Program-made: the position numbers and the translations under genes
Part shown: piece after piece, positions 15,275-43,893 of the stretch
How the letters are laid out: the number at the start of each line of letters is the position of its first letter
Position numbering within the stretch: the stretch's first letter is position 1
Source of the DNA: a virus
Lineage: Duplodnaviria > Heunggongvirae > Uroviricota > Caudoviricetes
Strand: one strand, 5' to 3'
Length of the DNA stretch: 43,893 nt
Virus record (IMG/VR): IMGVR_UViG_2645727810_000025
Span: 1-43,893 of that record
Notes under the pieces: generated by a model
Databases searched by the model: none
The model's input: only the letters and a program-made list of their open reading frames with translations
Told to the model about the DNA's origin: nothing

Positions 15275-15286
15275 GATTATCACCTT

Positions 15287-16549: not shown

Positions 16550-16639
16550 TATCTGATGTTATAAGTGTCAATAGCCTACGCTAAATAAATCATATGTGGT
16601 TAAATTGGTAATAATTTAATTGCGTACGGAGCTATTGCT

Positions 16640-16846
16640 ATGTGTATCGGCAGCAAGCCATCAGTGCCAGCAGCACCAGAAGTACAGGCCGCGCCACAGG
16701 AGCAGGATGCAGCAGTTGTCAGTTCTCGTGATGACGAAGAGCGCCGCCGCCGTGCAGCTGCTGGTCGCAGTTCTACTCTGCTGACTGGTGCGCAGGGCGA
16801 CACCTCAACCGCAAACACCAGCGGTAAAACGCTGCTCGGTCAGTAA
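16640..16846 (+). CDS. hypothetical small protein (68 aa), Ala/Ser/Thr-rich
   Basis: ATG 12 nt after GGAG; directly upstream of the portal gene. Confidence 0.5.
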   Translation: MCIGSKPSVPAAPEVQAAPQEQDAAVVSSRDDEERRRRAAAGRSSTLLTGAQGDTSTANTSGKTLLGQ

Positions 16847-16860
16847 CGGAGTAGGCAGAG

Positions 16861-25638: not shown

Positions 25639-26186
25639 TGTGCAGCCCGGCTATCGCTCTCGTTGGCGCCAGTGTCGCTTTAAGTGGCGTTTCAGCATAC
25701 AACCAGTACCAGCAAGGTAAGTATTCGTCTGCTGTTGCCGAGCAAAATGCAGAAGTGGCCACGGCACAGGCACAGGATTCTATCAACCGTGGTAATGCTC
25801 AGGCTGATGAGGTTCGTCGTCGTAACCGTCAGGCTGCTGGAACCCAGGCGGCAACCATGGGCGCAACTGGCGCAGATCTTTCCACTGGTGGAGCGCTTGA
25901 TATCTTTGGCGATACAGCTCAGTTTGGCGCGCTTGATGCGCTGACTACTGTGAATAATGCCCAGAGAGAGGCCTATGGTTTTCGTGTTCAGGGGGCAAAT
26001 TATCAGTCTCAGGCAGATTCAGCGCGCAGTGCAGGAAGTGCCGGCCTGACTCAGACATTACTAACCGCGCCACTGAAGGCATATGGGGCTTATAAGATTG
26101 GTGGTGGAGAGTGGAACCCATTTACTCAAACTGATCCTGCACCTATCGGAGCAGCAGCCGGAACTAGATTGCCAAGGGGGTTATGA
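25638..26186 (+). CDS. internal virion protein B (T7 gp14-like)
   Basis: 182 aa; N-terminus MCSPAIALVGASVALSGVS followed by Q/A-rich helical region mirrors the T7 gp14 N-terminus (MC.AAIPIAISGAQAISG...) as I recall it. Confidence 0.55.
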   Translation: MCSPAIALVGASVALSGVSAYNQYQQGKYSSAVAEQNAEVATAQAQDSINRGNAQADEVRRRNRQAAGTQAATMGATGADLSTGGALDIFGDTAQFGALDALTTVNNAQREAYGFRVQGANYQSQADSARSAGSAGLTQTLLTAPLKAYGAYKIGGGEWNPFTQTDPAPIGAAAGTRLPRGL

Positions 26187-28807: not shown

Positions 28808-28808
28808 G

Positions 28809-30515
28809 ATGCCTATTTATACAGATGATCCGGGGCAGGGTATAAACCAGCCGTTGTCGAATGCCCAGGCAGGGTTGGGTGAATCACTGCTTTCTTCCCT
28901 GAAAGAGGGATTTAAAGAGGGGCCGGTAGTATCCGGCTATCGTTTCTCCCAGGCTGAACAACTGGCTAACGATCCGAACTCGACCATTGTCGCCAAATCA
29001 GATGCCGATGCTCGCCTGAAAGAGTACGGTGTGAAAAGCATTAACGTGCCGGAAAGTGGAGTCACGCAGTCGTATCTCGATCATGTGATCAGCGAGCGCC
29101 GGGAATCGCTGGCGAAGCAGCAGATCGCCATGTCGGCCCCGTCTGGATGGGTAGCCACTCCGCTTAACTTTGCCGCAAACCTTGCTGGCTCCATGGCTGA
29201 CCCCGGCAACGTGGCGCTGGCGCTGGTCCCGTTCGGTGGAGAAGCGAAAGCGGCTACCATGCTCGGGCGGTTCGGCGAACGCTTGGCTACCGGCGCGCGG
29301 CTTGGCGCTGGCCAGGCCATTGCCACCGTACCGCTGACGGCACAGGCAGCAGCGGCAGAAGGGGATGACTTCACCTACGGCAATGCGCTGGAGAGCACTT
29401 TTTTTAACACCCTGGCTGGCGGGCTTATGCACGCTGGCGGCGGGCTTATCTCTGATGTTGTACGCTCCCGCAGGGCTGGCACAACTGAAAATCCTGCTAC
29501 CTCGCCAGACGCTCAGCCCGTCGCTGATGCGCAGCCAACGCCGGTAGTCACGCCTGACAATATTCCGGCTGGCGTCAATATTCCTGAGGCCGGCACTAAC
29601 GCCGATCTGTCAGCGGCAATCGCGCGGGATGCAGAGGCCTACGCCTACAGCCGCGCCTATGATGATGTCGTGCCGGAATATCTCGCCCGGCAGCAGGAGC
29701 TACAGACCGGGCGCGTCGACAACGTTGCCGATCTGCGCACTGAGCTGACGACCAATAACCGGCAAAGTGAAGCGCTTGACGCTACGCTGGCGCAGCGCAC
29801 GACGGAGTATCAGGCGCAACGTATGAACTTCAAAGCGGCGCGAGCCAGGGCGCAGCGTGATATTCAGGGTGAGAAAGACACCATTGCCGCGCGTAATCAG
29901 GAAATTAACCAGACGCTTGAGCGTAACGCCGCCGCAGAACAGGCGCGCGGCAGAGAGTCGCAACTGTCACGAAAAGAGATCCCCGACGACCTGGCCCCGT
30001 TAATCGATCAGCGCGCACAGCAGATCCGCGAGAGCATGCAGATGTCACCGGTCGCCGGTGCCGTGCGTACAGCTTCGGCAGCGGTGCGGGAGGCAGACTG
30101 GAGCGTAAACCAGCAGGCTTATCGCGGCGCACTGGCGCACATGATGGAAGGTCGCTCTCCGGACATTGAGCCTTTCTACGATCTGCACAAACCAGCGCTA
30201 CGCGAGCGTGCTATCCAACGCATCCAGAATCCTGTGCGGCAGGCTAATGAAGGTTCACGCGCCGTCAGTGAAAGTGCCGATCGTGTGTGGCAGGATACGC
30301 AAAAGGCTGACCACGAAATCACAGCGGCCACTGCCGATCTGGAAAATGAATTCAATATCAGTGACGCGCTGCTGAACGACATTGCCGCAGACAACCCTGA
30401 GCTGGCAGCGTCAATGCGCGAGAACATTGCCGCGATCCGTGCAGAGGCCAGTGACGACTCTATCGGCAAAGCGTATCGCGCTTTCGCCGCCTGTATGATT
30501 AACCGGGGGCTGTAA
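28809..30515 (+). CDS. internal virion / ejection protein
   Basis: 568 aa; position in the ejection-protein block. Confidence 0.55.
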   Translation: MPIYTDDPGQGINQPLSNAQAGLGESLLSSLKEGFKEGPVVSGYRFSQAEQLANDPNSTIVAKSDADARLKEYGVKSINVPESGVTQSYLDHVISERRESLAKQQIAMSAPSGWVATPLNFAANLAGSMADPGNVALALVPFGGEAKAATMLGRFGERLATGARLGAGQAIATVPLTAQAAAAEGDDFTYGNALESTFFNTLAGGLMHAGGGLISDVVRSRRAGTTENPATSPDAQPVADAQPTPVVTPDNIPAGVNIPEAGTNADLSAAIARDAEAYAYSRAYDDVVPEYLARQQELQTGRVDNVADLRTELTTNNRQSEALDATLAQRTTEYQAQRMNFKAARARAQRDIQGEKDTIAARNQEINQTLERNAAAEQARGRESQLSRKEIPDDLAPLIDQRAQQIRESMQMSPVAGAVRTASAAVREADWSVNQQAYRGALAHMMEGRSPDIEPFYDLHKPALRERAIQRIQNPVRQANEGSRAVSESADRVWQDTQKADHEITAATADLENEFNISDALLNDIAADNPELAASMRENIAAIRAEASDDSIGKAYRAFAACMINRGL

Positions 30516-33061
30516 TGGCTAACGAATTTCTGACGCAATGCGAAATGACCGTCAATACGGCTGCCGGGCGCAAGCTGTCTGAGGACGAAATGGAATCTCT
30601 GGTGCGTGACATGAACGACACCACTAACCGGATCCTGGCTGGCAATGAAGCACTGACACTGGAAGAAGCGGCGATGCGCGCCGCGCAGGAGCTTGGCAAC
30701 CGCGAGCAACTGGCGAAAGTAATCGAGGCACGCAACAAGGCCATCAATACGCGCATTGCAGCGCAGCGCCTCGGTGAGCTTCGCCGGACGTGGAAAGACA
30801 GGCCTGACATTGGGCTGGAAGCAATGCTGGTAGGCCGCAATGACGCGCGCACCGGCTCCCGCCGCTCTGTATCGTCTGAGGTGGCCCAGCTGCGCGGGAA
30901 GTATCACGCCGGTATTAACTACGATTTCGACCAGGCCGGGCTGGTTAAATTTATTGCCAGCGGCAGCAACGACCGGGAGATCGCCGACGCCATGTGGCGC
31001 ATCGGTCGCGGACAGAAAACGGACGGCATGACGCCACAATCTGTCAGTGCTGCGAAGATCATCATGAAGTGGCAGGAAACTGCGCGCGTGGATGAAAACC
31101 GTGCTGGTGCCTGGATCGGCAAGATGCCCGGCTACATCGTACGGCAGTCGCATGACATCCTGAAAATTCGTGCCGCCGGGTATGAGTCCTGGCGCAATGC
31201 CATTCTGCCGCGCCTTGATGATATGACATTTGACGGGATCACCGACCGCGATGGATTCCTGCGTGGCGTTTATGATGGCTTGGCCTCCGGCGTGCACCTG
31301 ACATCTGAAAAGCCTGACTGGATGAATGGCTTCAAGGGATCGTCTAACGCGGCGAAGCGCGCCAGCCAGGAGCGCGTGCTGCACTTCAAAGACGGTGTTA
31401 ACTGGCACGAATACAATGAGCAATTCGGGACCGGCAGCCTGCGAGAAGCAGTATTCGGTGGCCTGAACAGCGCGGCGCGCACGACGGGCATGATGCGCGT
31501 ACTGGGCACTAACCCGCAGAACATGTTCAAGTACCTGACAGACACCATCGCCAAAGACGTGAGTAAGCAGAGCAACCCTGCGGCGCTGGCAGATTTCATG
31601 ACCAAAGTTCGCCGGCTGAATCGCACGGTGATGCCTCAGGTAGACGGATCTCTGAATATCCCCGGCAGTGTCGGCTGGGCCAATGCCTCCGCTAACGTGC
31701 GCGGCTGGCTGCGAATGAGTCAGCTCGGCGGCGCGGTTATTTCGTCTTTTAACGACGTGCCGATCTCGGCGACAGAAATGCGGTATCAGGGCCAGAATTT
31801 TATGCAGGCGCTGACCGGCGCAATGAAGGGGCGCTTCTCCCGCTACACCAGTGATGAGCAGAAGGAAATTCTTTCCTCCATCGGCGTTTATTCCGACACG
31901 ATGACGCAAGAGATCATCCGTCGCATGTCCGGCGACGACAGCATGAGCGGGAAGATGGGCCGTGCGCAGCAACTGTTCTTCAAATACAACCTCATGAACT
32001 TCTGGACAGAATCCGGGCGTAACAGCAACGCCATGATGATAACCAACTGGCTGGCGAAGAACGCGGATCAGCAGTTCACGGCGTTGCCGGAAGACCTGCG
32101 CCGCGTGCTGGACCTGCACGGCATAGGTGACGCTGAATGGAATATCTACCGCAGCATGGACATGGCAGACAGCGAAGGCCGCAAATTCATGACGACCAGC
32201 GGAATTCGTGGCGTTCCGGATGAGGTGATAGCCTCATATGTTGAAGGAAAAGGCATGAAGGTCACCGAGCGATCTATTGCCGATGCGAGAGACACGCTGG
32301 AAAGCCAACTTCGTGGGTATATTCTTGACCGACTAAACATCGCTATGTCAGAGCCGGGAGACCGTACGCAGGCGTTTATGAAGATGGGCACTGTACCAGG
32401 AACAGTAGCTGGGGAGGCAATACGTTTCGCTGGTCAGTACAAATCGTTCACTGCGAGTTTCATGCAGAACGTGCTTGGACGTGAGGTATTCGGGCGTGGT
32501 TATACTCCCGCAGGACTGGGTGAGTCGAAAACCGGATCTCTGACGAATGCGCTGCTGCGTAACGGAAAAGGTGCATTCTTGGGGGCGGCAAACCTGTTCG
32601 TCTGGGCAACCATGTTTGGCTATATCTCTATGCAGTCGAAACTATTGCTTAAGGGGCAGACGCCGCGTCCGGCAGATGCCAAGACATTCCTCGCAGCCGC
32701 ATCTCAGGGCGGAGGCCTAGGCATCTTAGGCGACTTCATGTTTGGCGAAGTCAATCGCATGGGGGCTGGTCCAGTGACATCATTGATGGGGCCAGCCGCG
32801 TCGAACGCTGATAGCATTATCACGTTGTTCCAGCAGACAACGCGCGGCGATGCAGACCTGGGTGACTGGTATCGCACCGCGCTGGACAATACGCCTTTCC
32901 TTAACGTGTTCTGGCTGCGCACAGCAATGAATGGTTTAATATTGAACCGTATACAGGATGCGCTTGACCCAGGCTCTTTGGAGCGATATCAGCGCCGGGT
33001 TGAGCGTGAGCAGGGTAACGACTTTCTGATTCCACCATCGCAGTTCATGCTAGGGAAGTAA
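30515..33061 (+). CDS. internal virion / ejection protein
   Basis: 848 aa; coupled to the previous gene; with it, comparable in total length to T7 gp16. Confidence 0.55.
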   Translation: MANEFLTQCEMTVNTAAGRKLSEDEMESLVRDMNDTTNRILAGNEALTLEEAAMRAAQELGNREQLAKVIEARNKAINTRIAAQRLGELRRTWKDRPDIGLEAMLVGRNDARTGSRRSVSSEVAQLRGKYHAGINYDFDQAGLVKFIASGSNDREIADAMWRIGRGQKTDGMTPQSVSAAKIIMKWQETARVDENRAGAWIGKMPGYIVRQSHDILKIRAAGYESWRNAILPRLDDMTFDGITDRDGFLRGVYDGLASGVHLTSEKPDWMNGFKGSSNAAKRASQERVLHFKDGVNWHEYNEQFGTGSLREAVFGGLNSAARTTGMMRVLGTNPQNMFKYLTDTIAKDVSKQSNPAALADFMTKVRRLNRTVMPQVDGSLNIPGSVGWANASANVRGWLRMSQLGGAVISSFNDVPISATEMRYQGQNFMQALTGAMKGRFSRYTSDEQKEILSSIGVYSDTMTQEIIRRMSGDDSMSGKMGRAQQLFFKYNLMNFWTESGRNSNAMMITNWLAKNADQQFTALPEDLRRVLDLHGIGDAEWNIYRSMDMADSEGRKFMTTSGIRGVPDEVIASYVEGKGMKVTERSIADARDTLESQLRGYILDRLNIAMSEPGDRTQAFMKMGTVPGTVAGEAIRFAGQYKSFTASFMQNVLGREVFGRGYTPAGLGESKTGSLTNALLRNGKGAFLGAANLFVWATMFGYISMQSKLLLKGQTPRPADAKTFLAAASQGGGLGILGDFMFGEVNRMGAGPVTSLMGPAASNADSIITLFQQTTRGDADLGDWYRTALDNTPFLNVFWLRTAMNGLILNRIQDALDPGSLERYQRRVEREQGNDFLIPPSQFMLGK

Positions 33062-33062
33062 T

Positions 33063-33434
33063 ATGAACAGAATTATATTAATGACTCTTCTTATTTTTTT
33101 TGTTGGAAAAGCTTCTGCTGATACTACATCACCTTTAATGATTCAGCCTAAAAATGGAGAAACATTGGAGGATTCTAAAAAGCATACAATGGAATACTTT
33201 GGATGCATAAAAGGGCAGGCTGTAAAGTATGCCAAGACAGGAGAAAGTGTTGATTCCATATCAAAAGCTTCGGTTGTGTCATGCGAGTCATACATACCAA
33301 TGATCGCCGAGTCGAATATATATTATTTAAACTCTTCGCAAGATGGTAAGCGGCAATTTACAGAAAGGCTAAAATCTGATGGTGAGAGATTAGCCACAAA
33401 ATTTGCCATGGATGAGAAGATTAAAAATAAATAG
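33063..33434 (+). CDS. secreted/periplasmic hypothetical protein (AT-rich moron)
   Basis: 123 aa with signal peptide MNRIILMTLLIFFVGKASA/DT; visibly lower GC than the flanking structural genes. Confidence 0.6.
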   Translation: MNRIILMTLLIFFVGKASADTTSPLMIQPKNGETLEDSKKHTMEYFGCIKGQAVKYAKTGESVDSISKASVVSCESYIPMIAESNIYYLNSSQDGKRQFTERLKSDGERLATKFAMDEKIKNK

Positions 33435-33442
33435 GTGACCAC

Positions 33443-33739
33443 ATGCAAGCTATTGGTTTCATTGTTTACATAGTTGTTGGTCTTTTTCAGTTGGCTGCGA
33501 TCATGGCTGGTCTTGAATCGTGGTGGGGACTGCACTGGATAGTGGCTGCACCCATTGCTTTCATCGTTAGTTATATCCCGTTGGTCGGTTCCATTGTTGG
33601 AATGGTTGGCGCTGTCGACGTATGGCGTTGGGAATGGTGGCAGGCAGGGCTTCTTTTCTTTGGCGGCCTGGTTTTTGCTATTGCGTGCGGGGGAATGTCT
33701 TCGTTCTTCGAATGGCTATCCTTCAGGAAAAGAGCGTGA
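33443..33739 (+). CDS. small integral membrane protein (98 aa, about 3 TM segments)
   Basis: Hydrophobic Trp-rich sequence; ATG after AGGTGA; stop lies inside the GTGACATGTCAC palindrome. Confidence 0.6.
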   Translation: MQAIGFIVYIVVGLFQLAAIMAGLESWWGLHWIVAAPIAFIVSYIPLVGSIVGMVGAVDVWRWEWWQAGLLFFGGLVFAIACGGMSSFFEWLSFRKRA

Positions 33740-33747
33740 CATGTCAC
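33736..33747. repeat. 12-bp perfect palindrome GTGACATGTCAC (copy 3)
   Basis: Overlaps the TGA stop of the 33443-33739 gene; followed by a terminator. Confidence 0.7.
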
Positions 33748-33749
33748 AA

Positions 33750-33776
33750 AGGCCGCCGAAGCGGCCTTAATTTTTT
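33750..33776. terminator. bidirectional intrinsic terminator
   Basis: AGGCCGC-cgaa-GCGGCCT hairpin followed by TAATTTTTT; between convergent genes. Confidence 0.65.
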
Positions 33777-33927
33777 AACGCCCGCCAGGACGAGAATCGG
33801 CAGAACGACCACCGCAGCGTGATCCATCCGAAGCCGTATCGCTGTCATGCTGGCAGTTTCCAGCAAAAGCTTGTGTAGCAGAACCCAGAGACAACAGAAC
33901 AAACAGCACTGCTAATGCTTTTTTCAT
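33775..33927 (-). CDS. candidate small secreted protein (50 aa), below the ORF-track cutoff
   Basis: My own translation: MKKALAVLFVLLSLGSATQAFAGNCQHDSDTASDGSRCGGRSADSRPGGR; canonical signal peptide with AFA cleavage motif; weak SD. Confidence 0.4.
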   Translation of the reverse strand: MKKALAVLFVLLSLGSATQAFAGNCQHDSDTASDGSRCGGRSADSRPGGR

Positions 33928-33995
33928 TTCTTAATTCCATGTGTAGGCCACTAAATTATGGCGAAGAATTGTAGCGCGTCCATGCGCTACCGTCA

Positions 33996-34685
33996 TCAGA
34001 ACTTACCAGTCATGCTGTTGATGTACTGCACATGAGTCTGGATATCGCGCAGGCATTTACTGGCACCTACGATGTAGCTCATCATGGCCGTGAACTCTGC
34101 TACAGCACCTTCAACATCATGTCCGTCGGCGTCCATCTTCCGCAGCAGGTCCATCAGCATCGATCGCTCCGTCAGGCCAAGAACGCCTTCAGGTGAATGG
34201 ATGTGTTCACGGTAGTTCGGCTTGAGTGGTGCGCTGTATTCCTGTTTCTCTTCCGTTTTCATCGCTTCCAGAATGGCGGGCATGAAGCTGGCCACAACCT
34301 TTTGCGCTTTGTCTGCCGGTGATAATTCTTCACGAACGTAGCGACCGGTGCGACGTATCTGCGGGAGAACTTCGCCAGTTACCCATTTGCGGAAACGATA
34401 GGGGATAGTACCAGGAGTTACCGCATCGCGGCAGCGCAGGATCAGAGTGTAGAGGCCGGATTCAGAGATGATGAGGGTATTAGGGTTCCCTCGTTTTCCG
34501 TCGGTTAAAGCGACGGTATTCTTTTCGTCGTCATCCAATTTAAGCAGAGCATCACGGTTGTTTGATATACCAAGAGCATTACATACATCTAACGCAATAA
34601 ACCATGGCTCGCCGTCGATGATGATTGCACGAATATCGGCTTGCGATTCGAAAGAAAAAACTGAAGTATTTTTTTGAGTTGTCAT
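33996..34685 (-). CDS. phage antirepressor, Bro-N domain protein
   Basis: 229 aa from ATG at 34685 (AAGGTG SD; the track's first codon at 34694 is GTG); N-terminal Bro-N pattern (FSFESQADIRAIIIDGEPWFIALDVCNALGI). Confidence 0.7.
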   Translation of the reverse strand: MTTQKNTSVFSFESQADIRAIIIDGEPWFIALDVCNALGISNNRDALLKLDDDEKNTVALTDGKRGNPNTLIISESGLYTLILRCRDAVTPGTIPYRFRKWVTGEVLPQIRRTGRYVREELSPADKAQKVVASFMPAILEAMKTEEKQEYSAPLKPNYREHIHSPEGVLGLTERSMLMDLLRKMDADGHDVEGAVAEFTAMMSYIVGASKCLRDIQTHVQYINSMTGKF

Positions 34686-34843
34686 AGTGATCACCTTTTA
34701 GTCTGGTTAATCACCACCGGAGGTTCCAATCTCGGAGGTGGTGAACTGTGCAGGGTTGGAACTACCGGCTAAAAGGACCCGGCGCACCTTTCGGTGCCCC
34801 CACACAGCCCACCATAATGCGAATGTGGCCGTGCTTAACGCAT

Positions 34844-34945
34844 AAAAAAACCGCTTGCGCGGTGAATGCGCCTTTTAGTATCCGGGGTTCCAATCCCGGC
34901 ACTGGATTTTGCCAGTGCCTGATCACTATGGCACAAGTATTTTGC
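34844..34945 (-). ncRNA. candidate small regulatory RNA upstream of the antirepressor gene (C4-antisense-like architecture)
   Basis: Minus-strand order: palindromic promoter-like site (34955-34969), then 8-bp stem-loop GGCACUGG/CCAGUGCC, 5-bp stem-loop with loop AUUGGAAC, then CCGC-GCAA-GCGG hairpin plus U7; the loop motif GAUUGGAAC recurs in a hairpin at 34715-34745 in the antirepressor 5' UTR. Confidence 0.3.
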
Positions 34946-34954
34946 GTTGTAAAT

Positions 34955-34969
34955 TTACCGTAAAGGTAA
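34955..34969. promoter_or_regulatory. operator-like palindrome TTACCGTAAAGGTAA
   Basis: TTACC-N5-GGTAA followed by TAATAAG; upstream of the candidate RNA and antirepressor. Confidence 0.5.
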
Positions 34970-35000
34970 TAATAAGCGCATAGTGTATGATATTTCAACC

Positions 35001-35261
35001 TTATGTGGTTTGTCTTCGTAGCTGTTCAACACAGTAATCGAGATGTGTCTGCACATCCTTCATGGATAGCTGTGAGCTGGTGACATAGTTCACCAGTGCA
35101 GTAAGTTCGGCCAGCGGCCCGTCGACGTTGAACCCGTCTTTATCAAGTTCCCGCAATAAAGTCATAAGGTGCGAGTTCTCCACCAGGGATATAACGCCTC
35201 CCGGCGTGTGTACTCTTTCATAAAATCCATCTTCCAGTGGGTGGTGATACCGCTGTTGCAT
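35001..35261 (-). CDS. small protein paralogous to the antirepressor C-terminal domain (86 aa)
   Basis: ATG at 35261 with GGAG SD (the track start at 35279 is TTG); HTPGGVISLVENSHLMTLLRELDKDGFNVDGPLAELTALVNYV aligns with HSPEGVLGLTERSMLMDLLRKMDADGHDVEGAVAEFTAMMSYI of the 33996 gene. Confidence 0.55.
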   Translation of the reverse strand: MQQRYHHPLEDGFYERVHTPGGVISLVENSHLMTLLRELDKDGFNVDGPLAELTALVNYVTSSQLSMKDVQTHLDYCVEQLRRQTT

Positions 35262-35337
35262 TAACCATTCTCCATACAAACACTGTATATATATACATAT
35301 ATCAGATGAACCACTGTTTCACCAGTATGATTTTTAA

Positions 35338-35352
35338 TTACCTGTGAGGTAA
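35338..35352. promoter_or_regulatory. operator-like palindrome TTACCTGTGAGGTAA
   Basis: TTACC-N5-GGTAA followed by TAACT; in the divergent region about 100 bp upstream of the tail fibre gene. Confidence 0.5.
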
Positions 35353-35456
35353 TAACTTTGTTGATTACATCTCGTGCGATTCATATATGGTTCGTTGGGT
35401 AATAGAATAACCAGTAGTGCGGTGCGCCGGGTGCTGCGACTTTCTGGAGTTTAAAC

Positions 35457-38168
35457 ATGACGGTCTCAACCGAAGTTGACCACAATGACTACACGGGTAA
35501 CGGGGTCACGACATCATTCCCCTATACCTTCCGAATTTTTCATAAGTCTGATCTGGTGGTGCAGGTTGTTGACCTGAGCGAAAACATCACTGAATTAACA
35601 CTGGACACTGACTACACGGTGACAGGTGCTGGCGGATATACTGGCGGGAATGTTGTTTTATCGTCGCCTCTTGCCAATGGTTATCAGATTTCGATATCCA
35701 GAGAGTTACCGGTTACCCAGGAGACTGATCTCAGAAATCAGGGTAAGTTTTTCGCAGAAGTGCATGAGGATGCTTTTGATAAGTTGACCATGCTGATACA
35801 GCAGGCAATTAGCTGGCTGCGCCTTTCTTTACGTAAGCCGTCTTTTATTGCAAATTATTATGATGCCCTGGGTAACTACATACGAAATCTTCGTGACCCG
35901 TCACGACCACAGGATGCAGCTACAAAAAATTACGTTGACGGGGTTGCTGAAGGTAACATTTCTTATGCAGATTCTCTATTTAAAAGAACCTTAAGAGTTC
36001 CTGAGGATTATGTTGACCAGATACCATCAAATGCTGATAGATCAAATAAAATACTTGCTTTTGATTCTGGAGGTAAACCGATTGCTGTTTTACCTGAATC
36101 TGGTTCTGCTTCAGATGTTTTAATTGAGCTGGCAAATAACGGTGATAAAAAAATTGGTAGCTCATATGGTGGCACAGTTTATAGCGACTACCAACAATCA
36201 ATTTTTGTCAAAAAAGGAGATTTTTATTCCGGTTTAAGCATATCGGGAAAAGATGATGCCTACCTTTTTTCTGATGGGCTATGGTATGTATGGACTGGCG
36301 CATTACCGCACACGATCTTGTCGGGTGAAACTCCTGATGTAGAAACAACTAAATGGGCTTGTGTAGGCCTGCTTAATGGGCATGAAATTTGTTCTGCTCT
36401 TAACTATAGCGATTCATGGGGCATCCATGATGATTCACCATTACTTCGCAAAGCCATCATTAGTTTAATAAGAACTGGATATGCAAGATTTTGCATTAAC
36501 GCTGGCGTTACTATTAACCTTTTTACTGATTGCGAAATTCCGTTCTATCTGGATGGGAGGGCTGTGTCTTTCCGTTTTCATGGAGAAACAGCAATTGGTT
36601 CTTTAGGAAGAGTGTCAGAACTAGTAGTAGCTCTAGGTATTAGAGGTCTTGTATTCGAGGCTATTCAAGTAGAGATTGACCATTTCACTATGCGTCAGTG
36701 GGTTGGTAATGCTGGGCAGTCTATTGTCAGTTATACATCTGATACAGTTACGCTATCTTTTGACCCATGGCCTGACGGACGCACCCCAGTGATATGGCCT
36801 TGGGGAACTACTGCTGGTGATGGCACTGTTTACACAAGCTTTTTAGAATTTACAACTGACAGTGGTGGTTATTACGCATCTGGCGTAACTCGCAACTTAG
36901 ATGGAACCGTAACACTAACCAATGTCCATCCTATTGGGCCAACTAATACAATCGCTTCCGCAACGATTGTTAACTTTTTCCAGAGTCATGCTAATAACTA
37001 TCCAGAAGGAAGTTTCGCAGATACGGCAGCAGTAATCACCCTGGGGGTATCAGAAAACCCATTTATTCATAACTTATGGGTGCTTGCTGTCTATCGAGGC
37101 TTTGCTCACGGTCTTGGCTCTGGAGCAGGTCCGGGAGTATTGATGGGAAATATCGGCGTATGGTCTGATATTGTCGTAGACAACGCTTTATACTTTATAG
37201 CTAATACTGATGTGAATCCATCATCTGGGCAAGGCATCAACAATGGGATGTTCAATAACATTCAGTTATCAAACGTCCGTCGTGGAATAAGAGCACGTAG
37301 AGCCTACAATCTTGCATTCACAAACCTTCAGCATATTGCTAGCGGTAATGTTTCATTTGATGCTGTTACTATACTGGCAAATGAAATAGAAGGTGTTACT
37401 TTAAATGGATCTCAGTTTGGTTGGACATCTATCGACTGGGTTATAGATACATGGGTTCCTAAACTACTCAAGTGTACCCGATTACGTCGCTCCTCTATTA
37501 CTGGATGCGTGTTCGGTCGACATGATGTAACCATCACAAGAGGTGCCGTAATTGACGTTAAGGACGGCACAATACTAGGTTTAACACTAACTGGTAATTC
37601 TATGGTTACAATCGACGAAAACTCAGATTCAAGTAACTATGGATGGATTGAGTGTAATGAGCTTAAATCATCAGTTATTTCTGATAACTCCCCTAGTTCA
37701 GGTAGTGAGCTTGGTGGAAGCATTAATCTCTCGCTGAGAACTGCTTCTAATGACTTAACAAAATTTGATAACACATATTTTGGTCAACCAGTCAGAACAA
37801 ACGCAGAAGCTGGTGTGTTTGATAATGAACTAGCATCCGGTGGAAATGTTTTTGACAGCACAACTGAATACAGAGACGCAGGTAAAATTTTAATCTTTGT
37901 TGATGTAAACAATGCTGCTGTATGGCCTGATAATTCAAGGAATATCATACCATTCGGCGGAGGATTAACAGGAGGTAAAACACTTGGATTGCCTACCCCA
38001 GCAGTACTCCTGTCATTGAAAAGAAGAAGTGTTCTGGTTGATTTGTCATCTGTGGTTTTTGGTAGCCAGACAATTGGAGTGTATAACGGGGCAACTTTGG
38101 TATCAACAATATCAACTCCTGGTGTTTATGAGTTTCTCCTCGTAGGGGCAAAATACATAAAATTATAA
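35457..38168 (+). CDS. tail fibre / tailspike protein with T7 gp17-like N-terminal adaptor domain
   Basis: 903 aa; N-terminus (DYTGNGVTTSFPYTFRIFHKSDLVVQVV...TLDTDYTV) parallels the T7 tail-fibre N-terminal domain; long C-terminal Gly/Ser/Thr/Asn-rich region; GGAG SD; terminator downstream. Confidence 0.75.
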   Translation: MTVSTEVDHNDYTGNGVTTSFPYTFRIFHKSDLVVQVVDLSENITELTLDTDYTVTGAGGYTGGNVVLSSPLANGYQISISRELPVTQETDLRNQGKFFAEVHEDAFDKLTMLIQQAISWLRLSLRKPSFIANYYDALGNYIRNLRDPSRPQDAATKNYVDGVAEGNISYADSLFKRTLRVPEDYVDQIPSNADRSNKILAFDSGGKPIAVLPESGSASDVLIELANNGDKKIGSSYGGTVYSDYQQSIFVKKGDFYSGLSISGKDDAYLFSDGLWYVWTGALPHTILSGETPDVETTKWACVGLLNGHEICSALNYSDSWGIHDDSPLLRKAIISLIRTGYARFCINAGVTINLFTDCEIPFYLDGRAVSFRFHGETAIGSLGRVSELVVALGIRGLVFEAIQVEIDHFTMRQWVGNAGQSIVSYTSDTVTLSFDPWPDGRTPVIWPWGTTAGDGTVYTSFLEFTTDSGGYYASGVTRNLDGTVTLTNVHPIGPTNTIASATIVNFFQSHANNYPEGSFADTAAVITLGVSENPFIHNLWVLAVYRGFAHGLGSGAGPGVLMGNIGVWSDIVVDNALYFIANTDVNPSSGQGINNGMFNNIQLSNVRRGIRARRAYNLAFTNLQHIASGNVSFDAVTILANEIEGVTLNGSQFGWTSIDWVIDTWVPKLLKCTRLRRSSITGCVFGRHDVTITRGAVIDVKDGTILGLTLTGNSMVTIDENSDSSNYGWIECNELKSSVISDNSPSSGSELGGSINLSLRTASNDLTKFDNTYFGQPVRTNAEAGVFDNELASGGNVFDSTTEYRDAGKILIFVDVNNAAVWPDNSRNIIPFGGGLTGGKTLGLPTPAVLLSLKRRSVLVDLSSVVFGSQTIGVYNGATLVSTISTPGVYEFLLVGAKYIKL

Positions 38169-38175
38169 GCTTAAC

Positions 38176-38200
38176 AGGCCGGGAAACCGGCCTATTTTTT
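38176..38200 (+). terminator. rho-independent terminator
   Basis: AGGCCGG-gaaa-CCGGCCT hairpin followed by ATTTTTT. Confidence 0.7.
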
Positions 38201-38312
38201 ACTAATTATTTTTTGAAGTTACTAAATAGTCACAATGAAAATTTAAACCATATATGGTTTATTGTGTATGATGTGATCACCAACTAATGGGGGTCTTTAT
38301 GCACAGTAAACG

Positions 38313-38726
38313 GTGGTCACCATGTCAGCCCAGCTAACCAGTGAGTCTTTAAATCAGTGGCTTAGTATGGGTTCTCTGGCTGCAGTGATCGCAGGAGTTC
38401 CACCAGAGGTGGCGCTTGGTGCTTTATCAGGTGCGGTAATATTTATTACCTCAGCCGTTGAGTATCCAATACGCCGTCGGGTTCTCCTGTCGATGCTCAG
38501 CTTCCTCTGCGGGCTTCTATTCTACAAACCAACTGCATCAATCCTTATCGGCGTAGCCAGCCTGATCCCAACTATCACGCAGGACTCTTTCGAGAAAGGG
38601 ATCGTCTTCTCTGCTGGCGCGTTCGTGTCGGCAATCGTCGCAGTACGTATTGGTATCTGGCTCTATCACCGTTCCGACAATCCACGCGATTTAATCCCGG
38701 GGAGAAAAGACGATGACAACTCATGA
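38313..38726 (+). CDS. membrane protein, putative holin
   Basis: 3-4 predicted TM segments, first gene of the lysis cassette; true start may be the ATG at 38322 rather than the GTG at 38313. Confidence 0.5.
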   Translation: MVTMSAQLTSESLNQWLSMGSLAAVIAGVPPEVALGALSGAVIFITSAVEYPIRRRVLLSMLSFLCGLLFYKPTASILIGVASLIPTITQDSFEKGIVFSAGAFVSAIVAVRIGIWLYHRSDNPRDLIPGRKDDDNS

Positions 38727-39018
38727 GCTGCTTTTACTGATTGCCAATGCGGTTATCTGTTCAGCTATAGCAATCCGCGTCGGTACATTCAGGCGTAATG
38801 GATCGCAACACCGCCGGTGGGGTGGGTGGATAGCCTACTTCCTTATCGTGGCATCAGCCAGCATCCCCGTCCGGGCTGCATATGCAATCTGGTATCACAC
38901 ACCAATGTCCGCTGATTTATCAGAGGTCATCATCAATGCTGTCATGCTTGCCGCCGTTCTGAAGACGCGCGGTAACGTCGTGCAGATATTCAAAATATCG
39001 AGGTCTCAACATGAGTGA
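38713..39018 (+). CDS. membrane protein, holin/antiholin-like
   Basis: 101 aa, about 3 TM segments; overlaps its neighbours; GGGGAG SD. Confidence 0.5.
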   Translation: MTTHELLLLIANAVICSAIAIRVGTFRRNGSQHRRWGGWIAYFLIVASASIPVRAAYAIWYHTPMSADLSEVIINAVMLAAVLKTRGNVVQIFKISRSQHE

Positions 39019-39490
39019 ACTTGCATGGATTTCTGAAGGAAGAAAATATATAGGGCAACTGGAAATCAAAGGCCCTCGTCATAATCCTCTAATTCTCCAG
39101 TTCTGGAAGGATATTAAACGAGGTGGTATCAAAGATGATGAAACGCCATGGTGTGCTGCATACGTCGGATCAATGCTCGAGCGTGTCGGAATCAAATCAA
39201 CCCGTTTCGAGTCTGCAAAATCTTACCTCAACTGGGGCGTCGAAATTAGCGAACCAGCTTATGGGTGTGTAGTGGTATTCAATCGTGACGGTGGCGGACA
39301 TGTCGGGTTTGTTGTCGGACAGCAACAGAACGGTGACCTGATGGTGCTGGGCGGTAATCAGTCAGATGCCATCAATATTCGTGCATTTTCACGCTCCCGT
39401 GTCACCGGTTACCGCTGGCCTGTTAATGTTGCCAAGGACAACAGGAAGTTACCTTTAATGACCGGCTCATTATCGGTGAGTGAATCATGA
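39011..39490 (+). CDS. endolysin, NlpC/P60-CHAP-like cell-wall peptidase (TIGR02594-like)
   Basis: 159 aa; candidate Cys nucleophile (PWCAAYVG) and His (GGHVGFVVG); located between the holin-like genes and the spanins. Confidence 0.6.
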   Translation: MSELAWISEGRKYIGQLEIKGPRHNPLILQFWKDIKRGGIKDDETPWCAAYVGSMLERVGIKSTRFESAKSYLNWGVEISEPAYGCVVVFNRDGGGHVGFVVGQQQNGDLMVLGGNQSDAINIRAFSRSRVTGYRWPVNVAKDNRKLPLMTGSLSVSES

Positions 39491-39969
39491 TCAGAGCATT
39501 CATGAAAGCGTACTGGAAACAGTTGCTTATCGTGGCGATGCTTGCTGCTCTGGTGATCGTCGGCGTTGTTGCCTGGAATGTTCATGGCAGCCGACAGTAT
39601 GACGCCGGGTATGCGCAGGCAAAGACAGACCGTAAAACCGAAGATGATAAAGCTCGTCAGCACGACGAACAGGAGAAAGCAATCAATGAACGTAAAGCGC
39701 AGCAGAGGATCGACCAGGCGCGCAATGATGCTCTTGATGCTGCCGCTCGCGCTGGCAGGTTGCAGCAACAGCTCGTTGCCATCCGTGAGCAGCTCAGGCA
39801 GTATAACGCCATTGTCGGCGCTGGGCCGTCAGCCGCAGACACCGGTGTTTTGCTTGCCGACTTGCTCAGCAAATCTCTCGAGCGAAACCGACAACTGGCA
39901 GAGTACGCTGATCGGGCAGCCGAAGCAGGAAGAGTCTGTGAAAAGCAGTACGATTCGCTGACCAGGTGA
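39487..39969 (+). CDS. i-spanin (Rz-like)
   Basis: 160 aa; N-terminal TM helix (LLIVAMLAALVIVGVVAW) followed by a charged coiled-coil; last gene of the lysis cassette. Confidence 0.7.
   Translation: MIRAFMKAYWKQLLIVAMLAALVIVGVVAWNVHGSRQYDAGYAQAKTDRKTEDDKARQHDEQEKAINERKAQQRIDQARNDALDAAARAGRLQQQLVAIREQLRQYNAIVGAGPSAADTGVLLADLLSKSLERNRQLAEYADRAAEAGRVCEKQYDSLTR
39686..39961 (+). CDS. o-spanin (Rz1-like lipoprotein) embedded in the +1 frame of the i-spanin gene
   Basis: ATG at 39686 after AGGAG; lipoprotein signal MNVKRSRGSTRRAMMLLMLPLALAGC with lipobox LAGC; Pro/Ser-rich mature region. Confidence 0.65.
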   Translation: MNVKRSRGSTRRAMMLLMLPLALAGCSNSSLPSVSSSGSITPLSALGRQPQTPVFCLPTCSANLSSETDNWQSTLIGQPKQEESVKSSTIR

Positions 39970-39982
39970 CATGGCATTTTTC

Positions 39983-40376
39983 ATGGTACTGATTTCCGGC
40001 GACGGTATATAAAACGGTATTGGAAATTTTGTTTCTTTAAAAGTTGTTGTCAGTCAATTACTTATGTTGTCCGTAAATAATTGAGTGGGAATGATTTAAC
40101 GTCTGGCAACAGCCTGCACGTAAAAGCAGTAAAGTACCTCTAAGCCCGCGTAACTGCGGGCTTTTTTGTTTTTGTATCTGGCACTTTCTGGCAGCTGTTA
40201 GCAACGGGAAGCACGGTTTTTTCAATGGAATTTTTGATGGTACTCTCTGGTTTCGAATTCAGGTTTGAAAAAGTACCATGTGATAAATTTCGGTTGAGTT
40301 ATGGTATTTATTTTTTATAACTCAATTAAAAACAGAGAGTTAAACAAGTTTTCTGAATTTTTTACAACATGGTATT
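39983..40376. repeat. cluster of five ATGGTA(C/T)T repeats upstream of the integrase
   Basis: Copies near 39983, 40237, 40301, 40369 and an inverted copy at 40272 within an AT-rich 430-bp spacer. Confidence 0.4.
40143..40167 (+). terminator. rho-independent terminator after the lysis cassette
   Basis: AGCCCGC-gtaact-GCGGGCT hairpin followed by TTTTTTGTTTTTG. Confidence 0.7.
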
Positions 40377-40400
40377 TTTGATAAAGGAAAACAATAAAAC

Positions 40401-41591
40401 ATGTTGACTGACACCAGGCTGCGTCACCTTAAGCCGAAGGAGAAACTCTATAAAGTTAATGACCGTGATGGTCTGTATGTTGCGGTCACTCCGGCTGGAA
40501 CTATTTCATTTCGTTATAACTATTCAATAAACGGAAGACAGGAGACCGTTACTTTTGGCCGCTATGGTGTTGGAGGGATCACGCTTGCAGAAGCGCGTGA
40601 ACGGCTCAATGAAGCTAAAAAAATGGTTGCCAGTGGAAGATCGCCAGCGAGGGAAAAAGCTAGAGATAAAGCTCGTATCAAAGATGCGGAGACTTTTGGT
40701 GCATGGGCTGAGAAATGGTTACGCGGTTATCAAATGGCTGAATCGACGCGTGATATGCGGCGTTCGGTATATCAAAGGGAGTTGAAGTCAAAATTTGCGC
40801 AGCAGAAATTGACCGAGATTACACATGAAGACTTACGCGCATTAACCGATAACATTGTCGAGAGAGGGGCACCGGCGACAGCTGTGCACGCCAGAGAGAT
40901 TGTATTGCAAGTCTATCGCTGGGCTATTGAGCGCGGTCAGAAGGTTGAGAATCCCGCTGATCTGGTACGGCCTGCAAGCATAGCGAAATTTGAGCCTCGT
41001 GACAGGGCATTGACGCCAGTTGAAATTGGTCTGATGTATCGGTACATGGAACGGGTAGGAACGACGCCATCAATCAGAGCAGCGGTTAAACTTTTGCTGT
41101 TAACGATGGTACGTAAAAGTGAGCTTACTAACGCAACCTGGAACGAGATCAATTTTAGTGAGGCATTATGGACGATACCAAAGGAGAGGATGAAACGACG
41201 TAATCCACATTTGGTTTTTCTTTCCAGACAGGCAATGGATATTATGATTGCTCTCAAAACCTTTGCCGGTAGCTCTGATTTTATCCTTCCTTCGCGGTAC
41301 GATTCCGATGCGCCAATGAGTAGCGCTACTTTAAACCGGGTTTTGACACTGACGTATCGTCTGGCTCAGAAAGAAGGGGACTTGTTACCTAAGTTTGGTC
41401 CCCATGACTTACGGCGTACTGCCAGCACCTTGCTACATGAGGCCGGGTACAATACTGACTGGATTGAGAAGTGCCTTGCCCATGAACAAAAGGGGGTACG
41501 AGCTGTTTATAACAAGGCTGAATATCGTGAGCAGAGGGCCGAGATGCTACAAGATTGGGCGAATATGATTGATGAATGGACTAGTAAGTAG
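40401..41591 (+). CDS. tyrosine site-specific integrase (P4-type)
   Basis: 396 aa; N-terminal arm-binding region (MLTDTRLRHLKPKEKLYKVNDRDGLYVAV) and C-terminal catalytic region with R...HDLRRT...Y residues typical of phage tyrosine integrases. Confidence 0.85.
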   Translation: MLTDTRLRHLKPKEKLYKVNDRDGLYVAVTPAGTISFRYNYSINGRQETVTFGRYGVGGITLAEARERLNEAKKMVASGRSPAREKARDKARIKDAETFGAWAEKWLRGYQMAESTRDMRRSVYQRELKSKFAQQKLTEITHEDLRALTDNIVERGAPATAVHAREIVLQVYRWAIERGQKVENPADLVRPASIAKFEPRDRALTPVEIGLMYRYMERVGTTPSIRAAVKLLLLTMVRKSELTNATWNEINFSEALWTIPKERMKRRNPHLVFLSRQAMDIMIALKTFAGSSDFILPSRYDSDAPMSSATLNRVLTLTYRLAQKEGDLLPKFGPHDLRRTASTLLHEAGYNTDWIEKCLAHEQKGVRAVYNKAEYREQRAEMLQDWANMIDEWTSK

Positions 41592-41644
41592 TTAATAATC
41601 AGTGATTTAAGTGGATATACTTCTTTTATCTACGCCAGGAGAGC

Positions 41645-41664
41645 AATTTTAGCCGCTAAAATTT
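41645..41664. repeat. 20-bp palindromic element AATTTTAGCCGCTAAAATTT (copy 1)
   Basis: Inverted repeat ATTTTAGC/GCTAAAAT about 50 bp upstream of the 41715 gene; near-identical copy at 42481-42500. Confidence 0.6.
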
Positions 41665-41714
41665 ACTGAATCTTTACTGGTTTTATCTGGATTGCATAAA
41701 AAGGAAAAATAAAA

Positions 41715-42344
41715 GTGCCTGAGTTGTCTGTAATTATACAATGGATGAATCAATACCCTAAGACCGGCTGGCTATTGCTGTGTATCTATATTGCACTCGG
41801 TGTAGTTCGTCACAGAGTAATTAATGCTGAATCTGGAAGTGTATTTCGTGGACTACTCAATCTTAGGAAGCGCCGGCTAGAGCAAATGCTGACACAGCCA
41901 TATTTGAATAAAAATGCGGTCCGTCTGGCAAAGCGTGAGCTTCGTCAGCGCAGCCTTTATCGGCTCACAGGCTTGTATAATTATCGGCTGCAGGATTTGG
42001 CTGTAATAATGTGTGATCGTTATGGGTTGCGGGCTGGTTATCTCAAGCCGTGGCGTAACTGGCTCGAAGAACGGGATGGACGGATTGTGTTCAACAGGAA
42101 ATGGCATTGTTTTCGCTGGCGTCTTTTTCTGGTAGGTCAGATTGTAAACACAGTTCTACTAATCTTATTCATTATGTATATAGTTTCTCATTCTTCGGCC
42201 GAAATGATCGCACCGCTTATGTTACTCTTCATGCTTGTATGGTGGTTTCCTTGGCTAATGATCACCTCGGTACCTACCCCTAGGTGGACTCGCGAAATGG
42301 AAGTCTATCTTGAGAAATTTAACGCTGAACAGACCATGGTTTAA
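41715..42344 (+). CDS. hypothetical membrane protein (209 aa)
   Basis: GTG start after AAGGAAAA; N-terminal TM helix, basic middle region, C-terminal TM helices (LLILFIMYIV..., LMLLFMLVWWFPWLMI); low GC. Confidence 0.5.
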   Translation: MPELSVIIQWMNQYPKTGWLLLCIYIALGVVRHRVINAESGSVFRGLLNLRKRRLEQMLTQPYLNKNAVRLAKRELRQRSLYRLTGLYNYRLQDLAVIMCDRYGLRAGYLKPWRNWLEERDGRIVFNRKWHCFRWRLFLVGQIVNTVLLILFIMYIVSHSSAEMIAPLMLLFMLVWWFPWLMITSVPTPRWTREMEVYLEKFNAEQTMV

Positions 42345-42480
42345 ACTGTTCTTTGTTACCATGCATTCAGAGTGAATTGTCAGAGTTTTGGAAGATTCCA
42401 TCCTACGAGTAATACTCACAAGGTAATTCACATAATCAATAGGTTAAGTCATAAGCTTCTTGACCCTACATGAGAAGACG

Positions 42481-42500
42481 AATTTTAGCTGCTAAAAGTT
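42481..42500. repeat. 20-bp palindromic element AATTTTAGCTGCTAAAAGTT (copy 2)
   Basis: 18/20 identical to copy 1; about 140 bp downstream of the 41715-42344 gene. Confidence 0.6.
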
Positions 42501-42921
42501 TGGGCATATTTGGACTTAAATGCCACCGACATGATTCTAATAATTAAGCCAGTACCTAATGAGCCAAGAGAAGACAACTGTAAACGCCCCTTGGCTTAGA
42601 CTTGCTTTCAGGAAAGCGAATGCTTTTTATGGTCAGGGACAAGTAAGGGGATGAGCCATTGCATAACCATAAAACCAATTCGTTCTATGTCATTACAGAT
42701 CGGCTTCAGTGATTTACTGGTGAGGTAGTATCACTGTGATCCGTTTTGCATAACGCTTACAGCTGCGCTACAAACAATAAACTATAATACTGTATTTTCA
42801 AAATCATCAATTTGAAGCAGGGTAATCGCGAAAAACCCTCGTAAGTGGCTGGTTATAATTCAATAAAGTGGATGATATTAAGACTTAAACTGCCACCATA
42901 ATAGCTCGTGGATATACTATT

Positions 42922-43893
42922 TTAAATATAAAATTCTTTCCTCACAGACGCTAAGGCCTTGGACACAGCCTGCTTTGTCATAGTTGTGTAGTGATTTTTT
43001 TCTAAAACCTGTGCGGTTTCAAACTGGTTAAAACCTTGGTGTTTTAATATGATTATTTTTTTCTTAGTATCAGTGAATTTGGAGTCAACCATTCGTCTGG
43101 CAATATTCCTAAGTTTATCTAGATCTGCTGGGGTTAAAGTTTGACCCTGCATCCACTCATGAAAATAGGTATCAATCAATATATCCCCTGTGTTTGCGTT
43201 AGCTTTATGCGGTTTAGCGCATTGCCGTCTAAGCCTTATTAATTCTTTATTGAACTGTTCGAGAGACCGCTTTCCTTGTCTGTATTTGGGATTCCATAGA
43301 CCATTGGTGAGTTTGGGCCTATGGTCAGAACAATATCGATGACTAAGGACCTGTTTTTCATGAACGGGGAACTCATTATCGTTAGCAACAAATTCTGATA
43401 TCTCACTGATCAACTTGGAAAATTCGGTTAGATTACCGCAGAACTCGCAATAACCGAGCTTACGCTGTGAATTTATAGTTACTCCTTTTGCAGGAGAGGA
43501 TTTCTTCGGCCGCTTGGATGCGCACTCACTGACTAATTCAATAAGAGACTCAATCGTAGCGGTAAAGCATTTATCAAGAGAAGTTTGTTGATCTAAAGTC
43601 AGAACGAAATTACGCAAAAGAAGTCTTTGTGCCTGTACTACGACGTTTAAGCCCACTTTTTTAAGTACATCACTAAATCCTAGATTTACTCCAGAAATGT
43701 AGTCTTTATGACTTGGTGGCAGGGAATTTACATAAGCAGCTACTGCTGGATCAATAACTTCCTGTATGAGACGCAGTATTGGATACCTCCGTGAAAATAT
43801 GGAGTACGGATAACTACGCTCTACAAATAATTTAATTGCAGCTGCAACTGTGAGGTCACAGCCTTCCCAGATAGTAATTTTCATGTCAACCAT
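42922..43893 (-). CDS. hypothetical protein with C-terminal HTH-like region and Cys/His motifs (323 aa)
   Basis: Complete ORF with ATG at the window edge; AT-rich; C-terminus (KKKIIILKHQGFNQFETAQVLEKNHYTTMTKQAVSKALASVRKEF) resembles a sigma-70 region 4 / LuxR-type HTH; CEFCGN and CSDH motifs suggest metal binding. Confidence 0.55.
   Translation of the reverse strand: MVDMKITIWEGCDLTVAAAIKLFVERSYPYSIFSRRYPILRLIQEVIDPAVAAYVNSLPPSHKDYISGVNLGFSDVLKKVGLNVVVQAQRLLLRNFVLTLDQQTSLDKCFTATIESLIELVSECASKRPKKSSPAKGVTINSQRKLGYCEFCGNLTEFSKLISEISEFVANDNEFPVHEKQVLSHRYCSDHRPKLTNGLWNPKYRQGKRSLEQFNKELIRLRRQCAKPHKANANTGDILIDTYFHEWMQGQTLTPADLDKLRNIARRMVDSKFTDTKKKIIILKHQGFNQFETAQVLEKNHYTTMTKQAVSKALASVRKEFYI

Follow-up and report, generated by a model that had tools for sequence, protein, structure and literature searches.

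Positions 39970–43893 of the 43,893-nucleotide virus record IMGVR_UViG_2645727810_000025 (the whole stretch analysed, referred to below as the window) raise the question of whether the integrase gene starting at 40401, which follows the lysis genes of an epsilon15-like phage, belongs to that phage or to a second mobile element. A sequence-only reading of the window had preferred an adjacent integrase-led island or satellite and had kept as the alternative an epsilon15-like arrangement with int after the lysis genes. The comparisons described here indicate that the segment is very probably the boundary of two independent integrative elements that share, in tandem, a single insertion site at the guaA 3′ end. 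The first, element 1, an epsilon15-like (Uetakevirus) prophage, extends from window position 1 to approximately 40079 and has its own integrase just beyond the left edge. Element 2 is a GIsul2-family integrative mobilizable element (IME) of the PIME1 type, which occupies the window from 40098 onward and runs past its end. The preference for an island was borne out, as the island was found without the phage and the phage without the island, and the lysis cassette, integrase, spacer and low-GC genes described earlier were all located where they had been placed.

The spacer between the lysis genes and the integrase (39970–40400, 431 bp, 35% GC) is a chimeric attachment (att) site composed of a phage arm, a core and an island arm, and leads into the island integrase.

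39970–40079, no strand assigned: phage P arm (the prophage attR arm), homologous to the epsilon15 attP left arm
40080–40097, plus strand: shared attachment core ATTGAGTGGGAATGATTT, present at every junction compared
40098–40400, no strand assigned: island P′ arm (attL arm), matching at 99.8% identity the spacer between guaA and int in island carriers without the phage
40401–41591, plus strand: island tyrosine integrase of the GIsul2/epsilon15-cluster type, guaA-targeting, 396 amino acids (aa), assigned from Pfam and from identity to GIsul2 Int

The first bases of the core, ATT GAG TGG GAA TGA (40080–40094), are the last four codons and the stop codon of guaA (I-E-W-E-stop); the AT-rich spacer had been correctly delimited, but the presence within it of these last 15 nucleotides of guaA had gone unrecognised. 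The 18-base core ATTGAGTGGGAATGATTT was common to the K-12 attB, to the guaA/phage, phage/yfgI, guaA/island and island/yfgI junctions, and to the window junction. The direct repeats for which a search had been suggested were found at these junctions. The other suggestion, a tRNA or tmRNA target, found no counterpart in the window, throughout which ARAGORN detected no tRNA; the target is the end of a protein-coding gene, guaA. The 17-bp Uetakevirus core attgagtgggaatgatt, published as the attP/attB core of phiV10, epsilon15 and vB_EcoP_ZX5 (PMC9782041), matched exactly at 40080–40096. The GIsul2 core GAGTGGGA was contained in 40080–40097, and GIsul2 Int has been shown to excise its island and to integrate it at the guaA 3′ end through this core (PMC9376610). 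It is from this published work that catalytic activity and the core are drawn. The core ATTGAGTGGGAATGATTT is the crossover site for both elements, and by inspection it can be read as a 7-bp GAGTGGG between the short inverted repeats A(C/T)CATT and AATGAT.

Comparison with genomes lacking each element, as the sequence-only reading had proposed, revealed all four occupancy states of the guaA site: empty, island only, phage only and both. For E. coli, positions 39970–43893 were searched by megablast against 5426 complete genomes. The empty site is that of K-12, which reads guaA, core, yfgI. The island-only state was found in genomes such as RM10042: 473 of the 5426 genomes matched, and in the best of them the match began at 40080 and continued at 99.8% identity through the last base of the window, with an intact guaA immediately before it and no phage. 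The phage-only state was found in contigs 99.8% identical to window 35001–40097, which carry the exact tailspike protein of the window and pass straight from the core into native yfgI-side DNA. Both elements were present in the source contig L007 (GCA_001265165.1 JHQV01000010.1), which is 100% identical to window 25457–43893 (18.4 kb), and in the independent assemblies L008 and L009, which are 96–97% identical. The complete genomes VE-V11-M and MS8345 likewise read guaA, phage int, prophage, lysis genes, core, island int. The element boundaries, the common core and the four states were established by these comparisons.

Phage/island junctions of this type occurred in at least seven of the 5426 genomes, with varied phages and island subtypes; the tandem of MS8345, for example, consists of a K1-endosialidase phage and a PIME3-like island. 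A synthetic junction query for the reverse order, island then phage, matched none of the 5426 genomes, and the exact hybrid junction had no match among GTDB species-representative genomes. The Uetakevirus int-side arm was present in 548 of the 5426. With 548 phage and 473 island carriers, approximately 48 tandems would be expected under independence, against the at least seven seen, a crude comparison in which phylogeny is uncorrected and seven is a lower bound.

The phage side of the junction was defined by the lysis genes and by the opposite end of the prophage.

38313–39969, plus strand: lysis cassette, comprising Phage_holin_8, Phage_holin_3_7, a CHAP endolysin and a DUF2514 Rz-like protein (Pfam)
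1–4, plus strand: last bases of the phage integrase gene (window 1–4 reads TTAA, with the stop codon at 2–4; the remainder of the gene lies left of the window)
2040–2288, minus strand: phage AlpA-like excisionase/regulator, 82 aa, in the leftward early operon (Pfam Phage_AlpA, E=1.1e-5)

In free epsilon15 the gene order is Rz-like gene, attP, int, and in a lysogen the lysis cassette therefore forms the right end and int the left end. Consistent with this, contig L013, which is 99.955% identical to window 1–8825, reads xseA, guaB, guaA, core, a 417-aa integrase, a 59-aa gene and an MT-A70 methylase. The stop codon of the 417-aa integrase corresponds to window 2–4, and the protein is 96% identical to the epsilon15 integrase. 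The expectation that the phage's own integrase lay to the left of the window was confirmed, since this gene ends at window base 4; the 40401 integrase is thus not the sole recombinase across the window. Window 1–25000 is approximately 90% identical to Salmonella phages 65FD and PAT1 and also matches phiV10, TL-2011b and other epsilon15-like podoviruses. Towards the right end, the blocks 38248–39013 and 39487–40098 are 91–95% identical to epsilon15, and the second of these (91%) ends at base 40098, at the core. The phage P arm was identical in the island-free lysogens L010 and L011 and was missing from phage-free genomes, where the match begins at 40080. Base composition also differed across the boundary, with a GC content of approximately 50–60% over most of the phage versus 40–44% downstream of the 40401 integrase. 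The epsilon15 counterpart of the AlpA-like gene at 2040–2288, gp33, is annotated as an excisionase and transcriptional regulator.

The two arms of the chimeric site carry repeated short motifs. ATGGTAYT occurred five times in the spacer (plus strand at 39983, 40237, 40301 and 40369; minus strand at 40272–40279) and once in the remaining 43.5 kb of the window. Dinucleotide-preserving shuffles of the spacer contained a mean of 0.03 copies, and none of 5000 reached even three. The five repeats that had been attributed to the spacer were all present, but they do not form one set: the phage arm contributes one and the island arm four (40237, 40272 on the minus strand, 40301 and 40369). They are putative arm-type integrase sites. 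The island arm also contains a terminator hairpin followed by a T-run (40142–40173, from a terminator scan), which in phage-free carriers stands directly after the guaA stop codon. The hairpin and all four island-arm ATGGTAYT positions were kept in the otherwise diverged GIsul2 arm of plasmid pAB3. The phage P arm holds ATGGCATTTTTCATGGTACT at 39971–39990 and two ACGGTAT motifs (40003–40009 and 40015–40021), the counterpart of which in the epsilon15 attP left arm is annotated as the integrase-binding site GTGACGGTAT. The phage-arm sequence ATGGCATTTTTCATGGTACT matches the island sequence ATGGAATTTTTGATGGTACT at 90% and resembles ATGGTATTTTTAATGGTATT at the island far end.

The 40401 integrase contains the domains Arm-DNA-bind_3 (E=2.4e-19), Phage_int_M and Phage_integrase (E=1.9e-23). 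It shares 87.3% amino acid identity over 395 residues with GIsul2 Int of the A. baumannii plasmid pAB3, and 52–53% with Uetakevirus integrases. More generally, island integrases, GIsul2 Int included, shared 86–89% identity, phage integrases shared 87–96% among themselves, and identities between the groups were 52–54%. This division into two groups agrees with the published “epsilon15 cluster” of guaA-targeting integrases, which is common to phages and islands and is set apart from the P4 cluster (PMC8138268). The “P4-type” designation of the sequence-only reading is accordingly correct only if taken broadly, to mean an arm-binding tyrosine integrase.

The extent of the island was determined in RM10042, in which it ends at a further core copy, 22,187 bp from the first, with native DNA from downstream of guaA beyond; the right end was thus read in a 99.8%-identical copy and not in that of the source genome. 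Two ATGGTATT copies lie approximately 70 nt inside this far end. In the source contig and 10 other contexts, the backbone order was int (396 aa), the 209-aa gene, the divergent 323-aa gene, AlpA, RepA (AAA_25), a 260-aa gene, a NikA/TraJ-like gene, TrbJ, a 57-aa gene, TrbL and variable cargo. Beyond the window, the source contig encodes a Phage_AlpA protein (E=6e-13), an AAA_25 RepA, a NikA-like protein, a 264-aa protein in the TrbJ position, and TrbL. Past the window, the island continues with alpA, repA, a repC-like gene, traJ/nikA, trbJ and trbL, followed by variable cargo. The RM10042 annotation lists RepA, TraJ, TrbJ and TrbL, and lists no relaxase, coupling protein or other type IV secretion system (T4SS) genes.

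Matching gene order, a size of 22.2 kb and the guaA location place the island in the PIME1 subfamily, a family assignment made here by comparison with the published description: location at guaA, 22.2 kb, and luxR divergent from alpA, with repA, traJ, trbJ and trbL (bioRxiv 10.64898/2026.01.12.698999). According to the same preprint, from which helper dependence and gene essentiality are taken, excision and replication of PIME1 are induced by IncP plasmids, and excision requires int, luxR and alpA. The preprint also places an accessory region between int and the regulatory genes, describes a cargo rich in defence functions, and reports for two PIME1 elements that an IncP helper plasmid induces excision, replication and transfer (bioRxiv 10.64898/2026.01.12.698999). 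On the same backbone, the cargo after trbL was found to vary (L001 24964–29150; L014–L023), and included an ABC-three-component (ABC-3C) system (CTD1, MComp1, SMC-like ATPase), DndB-type genes, Fic/DOC and a HigA antitoxin. The chromosomal flanks of these loci also vary, which may reflect different host lineages, and the 323-aa protein is identical throughout.

Two island genes downstream of the integrase lie within the window.

41715–42344, plus strand: 209-aa helical membrane protein with hydrophobic helices, in the accessory slot between int and the luxR-like regulator
42922–43893, minus strand: 323-aa putative PIME1 “LuxR-family” regulator, divergent from the alpA-repA operon that starts just past the window

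Both had been labelled cargo. The 209-aa gene sits in the known int–luxR accessory hotspot. The label does not fit the 323-aa gene, which by position and name is the PIME1 luxR regulator, and hence a conserved core gene of the island family. In 10 of 10 contexts, the neighbours of the 323-aa gene were the 209-aa gene and alpA, and it stood immediately upstream of alpA in divergent orientation. More than 370 homologues were found, many with the NCBI name LuxR family, and a C149-x2-C152 ... C188-x2-H191 cluster was invariant among the homologues. Weak Sigma70_r4, GerE and HTH_8 matches were obtained in 4–6 of 28 homologues; the helix-turn-helix assignment is based on these weak domain matches and the NCBI names, because structure and profile searches gave nothing. 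The AlphaFold2 model of the 323-aa protein (predicted local distance difference test score, 73) was disordered over 128–208 and confident for 211–323 and part of the N-terminal domain. Foldseek comparison of this model with the PDB yielded no match at E≤0.001, and a profile search of PDB sequences yielded none. A sub-threshold match to DrmE_C (E=0.026) was observed. The 209-aa family is narrow (28 clusters, with named members mostly from Enterobacterales), and 21 aligned homologues were 40–83% identical. Its predicted model was all-helical with hydrophobic helices, and gave no family or informative fold matches. Searches of the 209-aa and 323-aa proteins with Pfam, PADLOC and NCBIfam returned nothing significant, and the defence-system check proposed for them gave no PADLOC match at E≤1.

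Another reading of the island is as a P4-like or PICI-like phage satellite, which would exploit the adjacent Uetakevirus and be packaged in its particles. It is integrase-led and approximately 22 kb long, has an AlpA-type regulator and a replication module, and adjoins a prophage that shares its att core and encodes a related integrase; moreover, occasional transduction is speculated upon in the PIME preprint (bioRxiv 10.64898/2026.01.12.698999). However, its mobility genes are of the conjugation type (NikA/TraJ-like, TrbJ, TrbL), and no capsid-remodelling or packaging gene is annotated in the island copies examined. Nearly all island copies are phage-free (473 genomes with a related int region versus at least seven tandems), and PIME1 excision is triggered by IncP plasmids (bioRxiv 10.64898/2026.01.12.698999). 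A satellite is thus very unlikely and was rejected; what had been offered as a possible satellite is a conjugation-dependent mobilizable element.

Even less credible is a single element, that is, an epsilon15-like phage with 40401 as its own integrase and the downstream genes as morons. The order of free epsilon15 (Rz-like gene, attP, int) and the 52–53% homology of the 40401 integrase to those of Uetakevirus would fit such an arrangement, but the four-state comparison refuted it. In other genomes, the 40401 gene and everything rightward of it adjoin guaA with no phage present, and the same right end of the phage is found where they are missing. At its opposite end the phage carries its own integrase, of 417 aa, which shares 96% identity with the epsilon15 enzyme, and epsilon15 homology stops at the core, at base 40098. 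The apparent int-after-lysis order is a coincidence of two homologous att/int modules lying head to tail. An assembly chimera, or homologous recombination between unrelated contigs, is the least credible account and was rejected, because, even if an 18-bp repeat and related integrases could in principle mislead an assembler, the same junction recurred in two independent Logan assemblies (96–97% identical) besides the NCBI contig of the source, and analogous phage/island junctions, formed by varied phages and island subtypes, were present in at least seven complete E. coli genomes.

Several points weigh against the interpretation as two independent elements in tandem. The phage integrase with attL and the far end of the island are outside the window, and were viewed in L013, which is another assembly, and in related genomes. 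Continued excision of either element in this strain is presumed from sequence, and the arm-type role proposed for ATGGTAYT is suggested by enrichment and conservation. In addition, IncP plasmids induced the E. coli PIME1 described in the preprint but did not mobilize it at high frequency, in contrast to the M. morganii element, which encodes a relaxase (bioRxiv 10.64898/2026.01.12.698999); by analogy, transfer of the window island may be similarly weak.

The tandem can be accounted for by the following model. Each element has its own tyrosine integrase with an N-terminal arm-binding domain, the two being homologous with approximately 53% identity, and both integrases would recombine inside the same core, at GAGTGGG with its flanking short inverted repeats in ATTGAGTGGGAATGATTT. 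Because the attP of each element carries a copy of the guaA end, integration would restore the gene and duplicate the core. As a result of this duplication, the occupied site would stay a target, and a second element could enter beside the first (tandem accretion). The core would be regenerated on both sides each time, so that either order of arrival would yield the observed layout and the order is not deducible from structure. For excision of the phage, its Int and AlpA-like excisionase would recombine the attL at guaA with the chimeric site, releasing the phage and joining guaA to the island. For excision of the island, its Int, AlpA and LuxR would recombine the chimeric site with the far attR of the island, releasing it and leaving a normal phage attR. 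In PIME1, the trigger for the latter is a signal from an IncP helper plasmid (bioRxiv 10.64898/2026.01.12.698999). Independent excision of each element in this particular tandem would be expected under the model.

It is possible, albeit doubtful, that the chimeric site and the common ATGGNAYT-N4-ATGGTAYT arm motif allow each of the two integrases (53% identical), with its AlpA-type cofactor, to work at the sites of the other. If so, induction of the prophage could free the island or excise it together with the phage, or induction of the island could upset the lysogen, and a conjugation-dependent island would be linked to a phage. The fixed phage-then-island order and the low co-occupancy could reflect such an interplay, or a directional preference for the site.

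The result bears on annotation. Without the four-state comparison, the 40401 integrase is easily mistaken for the phage's own, and the island genes for morons of the phage. The prophage properly ends at base 40097, and the island begins at the same core. In addition, guaA is a landing site common to at least two kinds of mobile element with homologous integrases, and tandems formed there hold a chimeric att site. Anti-phage systems are among the genes carried by this island family, which gives its physical association with a prophage a modest ecological interest.

Several further observations were made on the prophage. The endolysin (39011–39490) is of the CHAP type and carries a TIGR02594-family name in a related E. 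coli prophage, whereas epsilon15 and most E. coli relatives have a GH19 enzyme; the homology to epsilon15 is broken over exactly this gene. The tailspike/lysis module (35001–40097) was 99.8% identical in the L010 and L011 prophages, whose upstream virion genes differ (products of 915, 1129 and 283 aa), suggesting recent modular exchange of a host-range/lysis block. The 903-aa tailspike has no Pfam match on record. At 34734–34918 on the minus strand, an Rfam C4 antisense RNA (77 bits) lies beside an isrK Hfq-binding small RNA (76 bits), upstream of a BRO-N gene (33996–34694, minus strand). C4/isrK together with the antirepressor-like BRO-N gene looks like a P1/P7-style RNA-controlled antirepressor module. 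The approximately 2 kb between the large terminase and portal genes (14812–16861) contained no open reading frame (ORF) longer than 94 aa; the same position in the related VE-V11-M prophage holds a Gp49-family gene and a tRNA-Arg.

Both ends of the window fall on gene boundaries. TTAA at 1–4 forms the overlapping stop codons of the phage integrase (plus strand) and a small minus-strand gene, and the final three bases (43891–43893) are the start codon of the 323-aa gene; it is by these limits that the phage integrase was just excluded. An exact-protein look-up of the 103-aa ORF at 1–312 gave no record, and a gene caller gives a 59-aa version. The guaBA region of L013 (10264–13309) was only 96.4% identical to that of K-12 (L003), seemingly low for a within-species housekeeping locus, and the host lineage of L013 may be a divergent Escherichia.

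Set against known systems, the arrangement is ordinary and well understood: its components, core sequence and integrase kinship have all been published, and the tandem implies no new element type or mechanism. Like P4, the island is led by an arm-binding (DUF4102-type) tyrosine integrase of the same broad IntSXT subgroup (PMC8138268). It differs in the target of its integrase, guaA rather than the tRNA genes used by the P4 cluster, in the placement of that integrase in the epsilon15 cluster, and in lacking P4-type satellite genes. The phage resembles the Uetakevirus system (epsilon15, phiV10, vB_EcoP_ZX5) in its identical 17-bp core and in an attP between the Rz-like gene and int; compared with epsilon15, its P arm is 91% identical and the integrase of the near-identical contig 96% identical. 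It departs from this system in that another element's arm stands in place of the bacterial half of attR, and from epsilon15 in its CHAP/TIGR02594-type rather than GH19 endolysin. GIsul2 (Nigro and Hall 2011; Harmer 2017; PMC9376610) shares with the island an 87% identical Int, the guaA 3′ end, the core GAGTGGGA, the terminator hairpin and ATGGTAT positions of the int-proximal arm, and the alpA-repA-repC and trbJ-trbL modules. In GIsul2, however, alpA directly follows int, without the 209-aa gene or the luxR-like gene, and the cargo is ars, CR2 and sul2, whereas the visible part of the window island has no resistance gene.

The island also matches PIME1, for example PIME1 EcRHB23-C07, in a comparison made by published description. 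PIME1 lies at guaA with int at its left end and a luxR-family regulator divergent from alpA, carries repA, traJ, trbJ and trbL without a complete T4SS, has a slot for accessory genes between int and the regulatory genes, and bears defence cargo downstream of trbL, all as in the window island, which is 22.2 kb in its phage-free copy. The window island differs in being separated from guaA by a prophage. The tandem itself resembles the accretion described for ICESt1/CIME and IME pairs, in which distantly related integrases of the same specificity lead to elements lying head to tail with a regenerated core between them (PMC5704250). The described cases are mostly pairs of integrative and conjugative elements (ICE), IME and cis-mobilizable elements (CIME) (PMC5704250), whereas here one partner is a functional-looking temperate phage.

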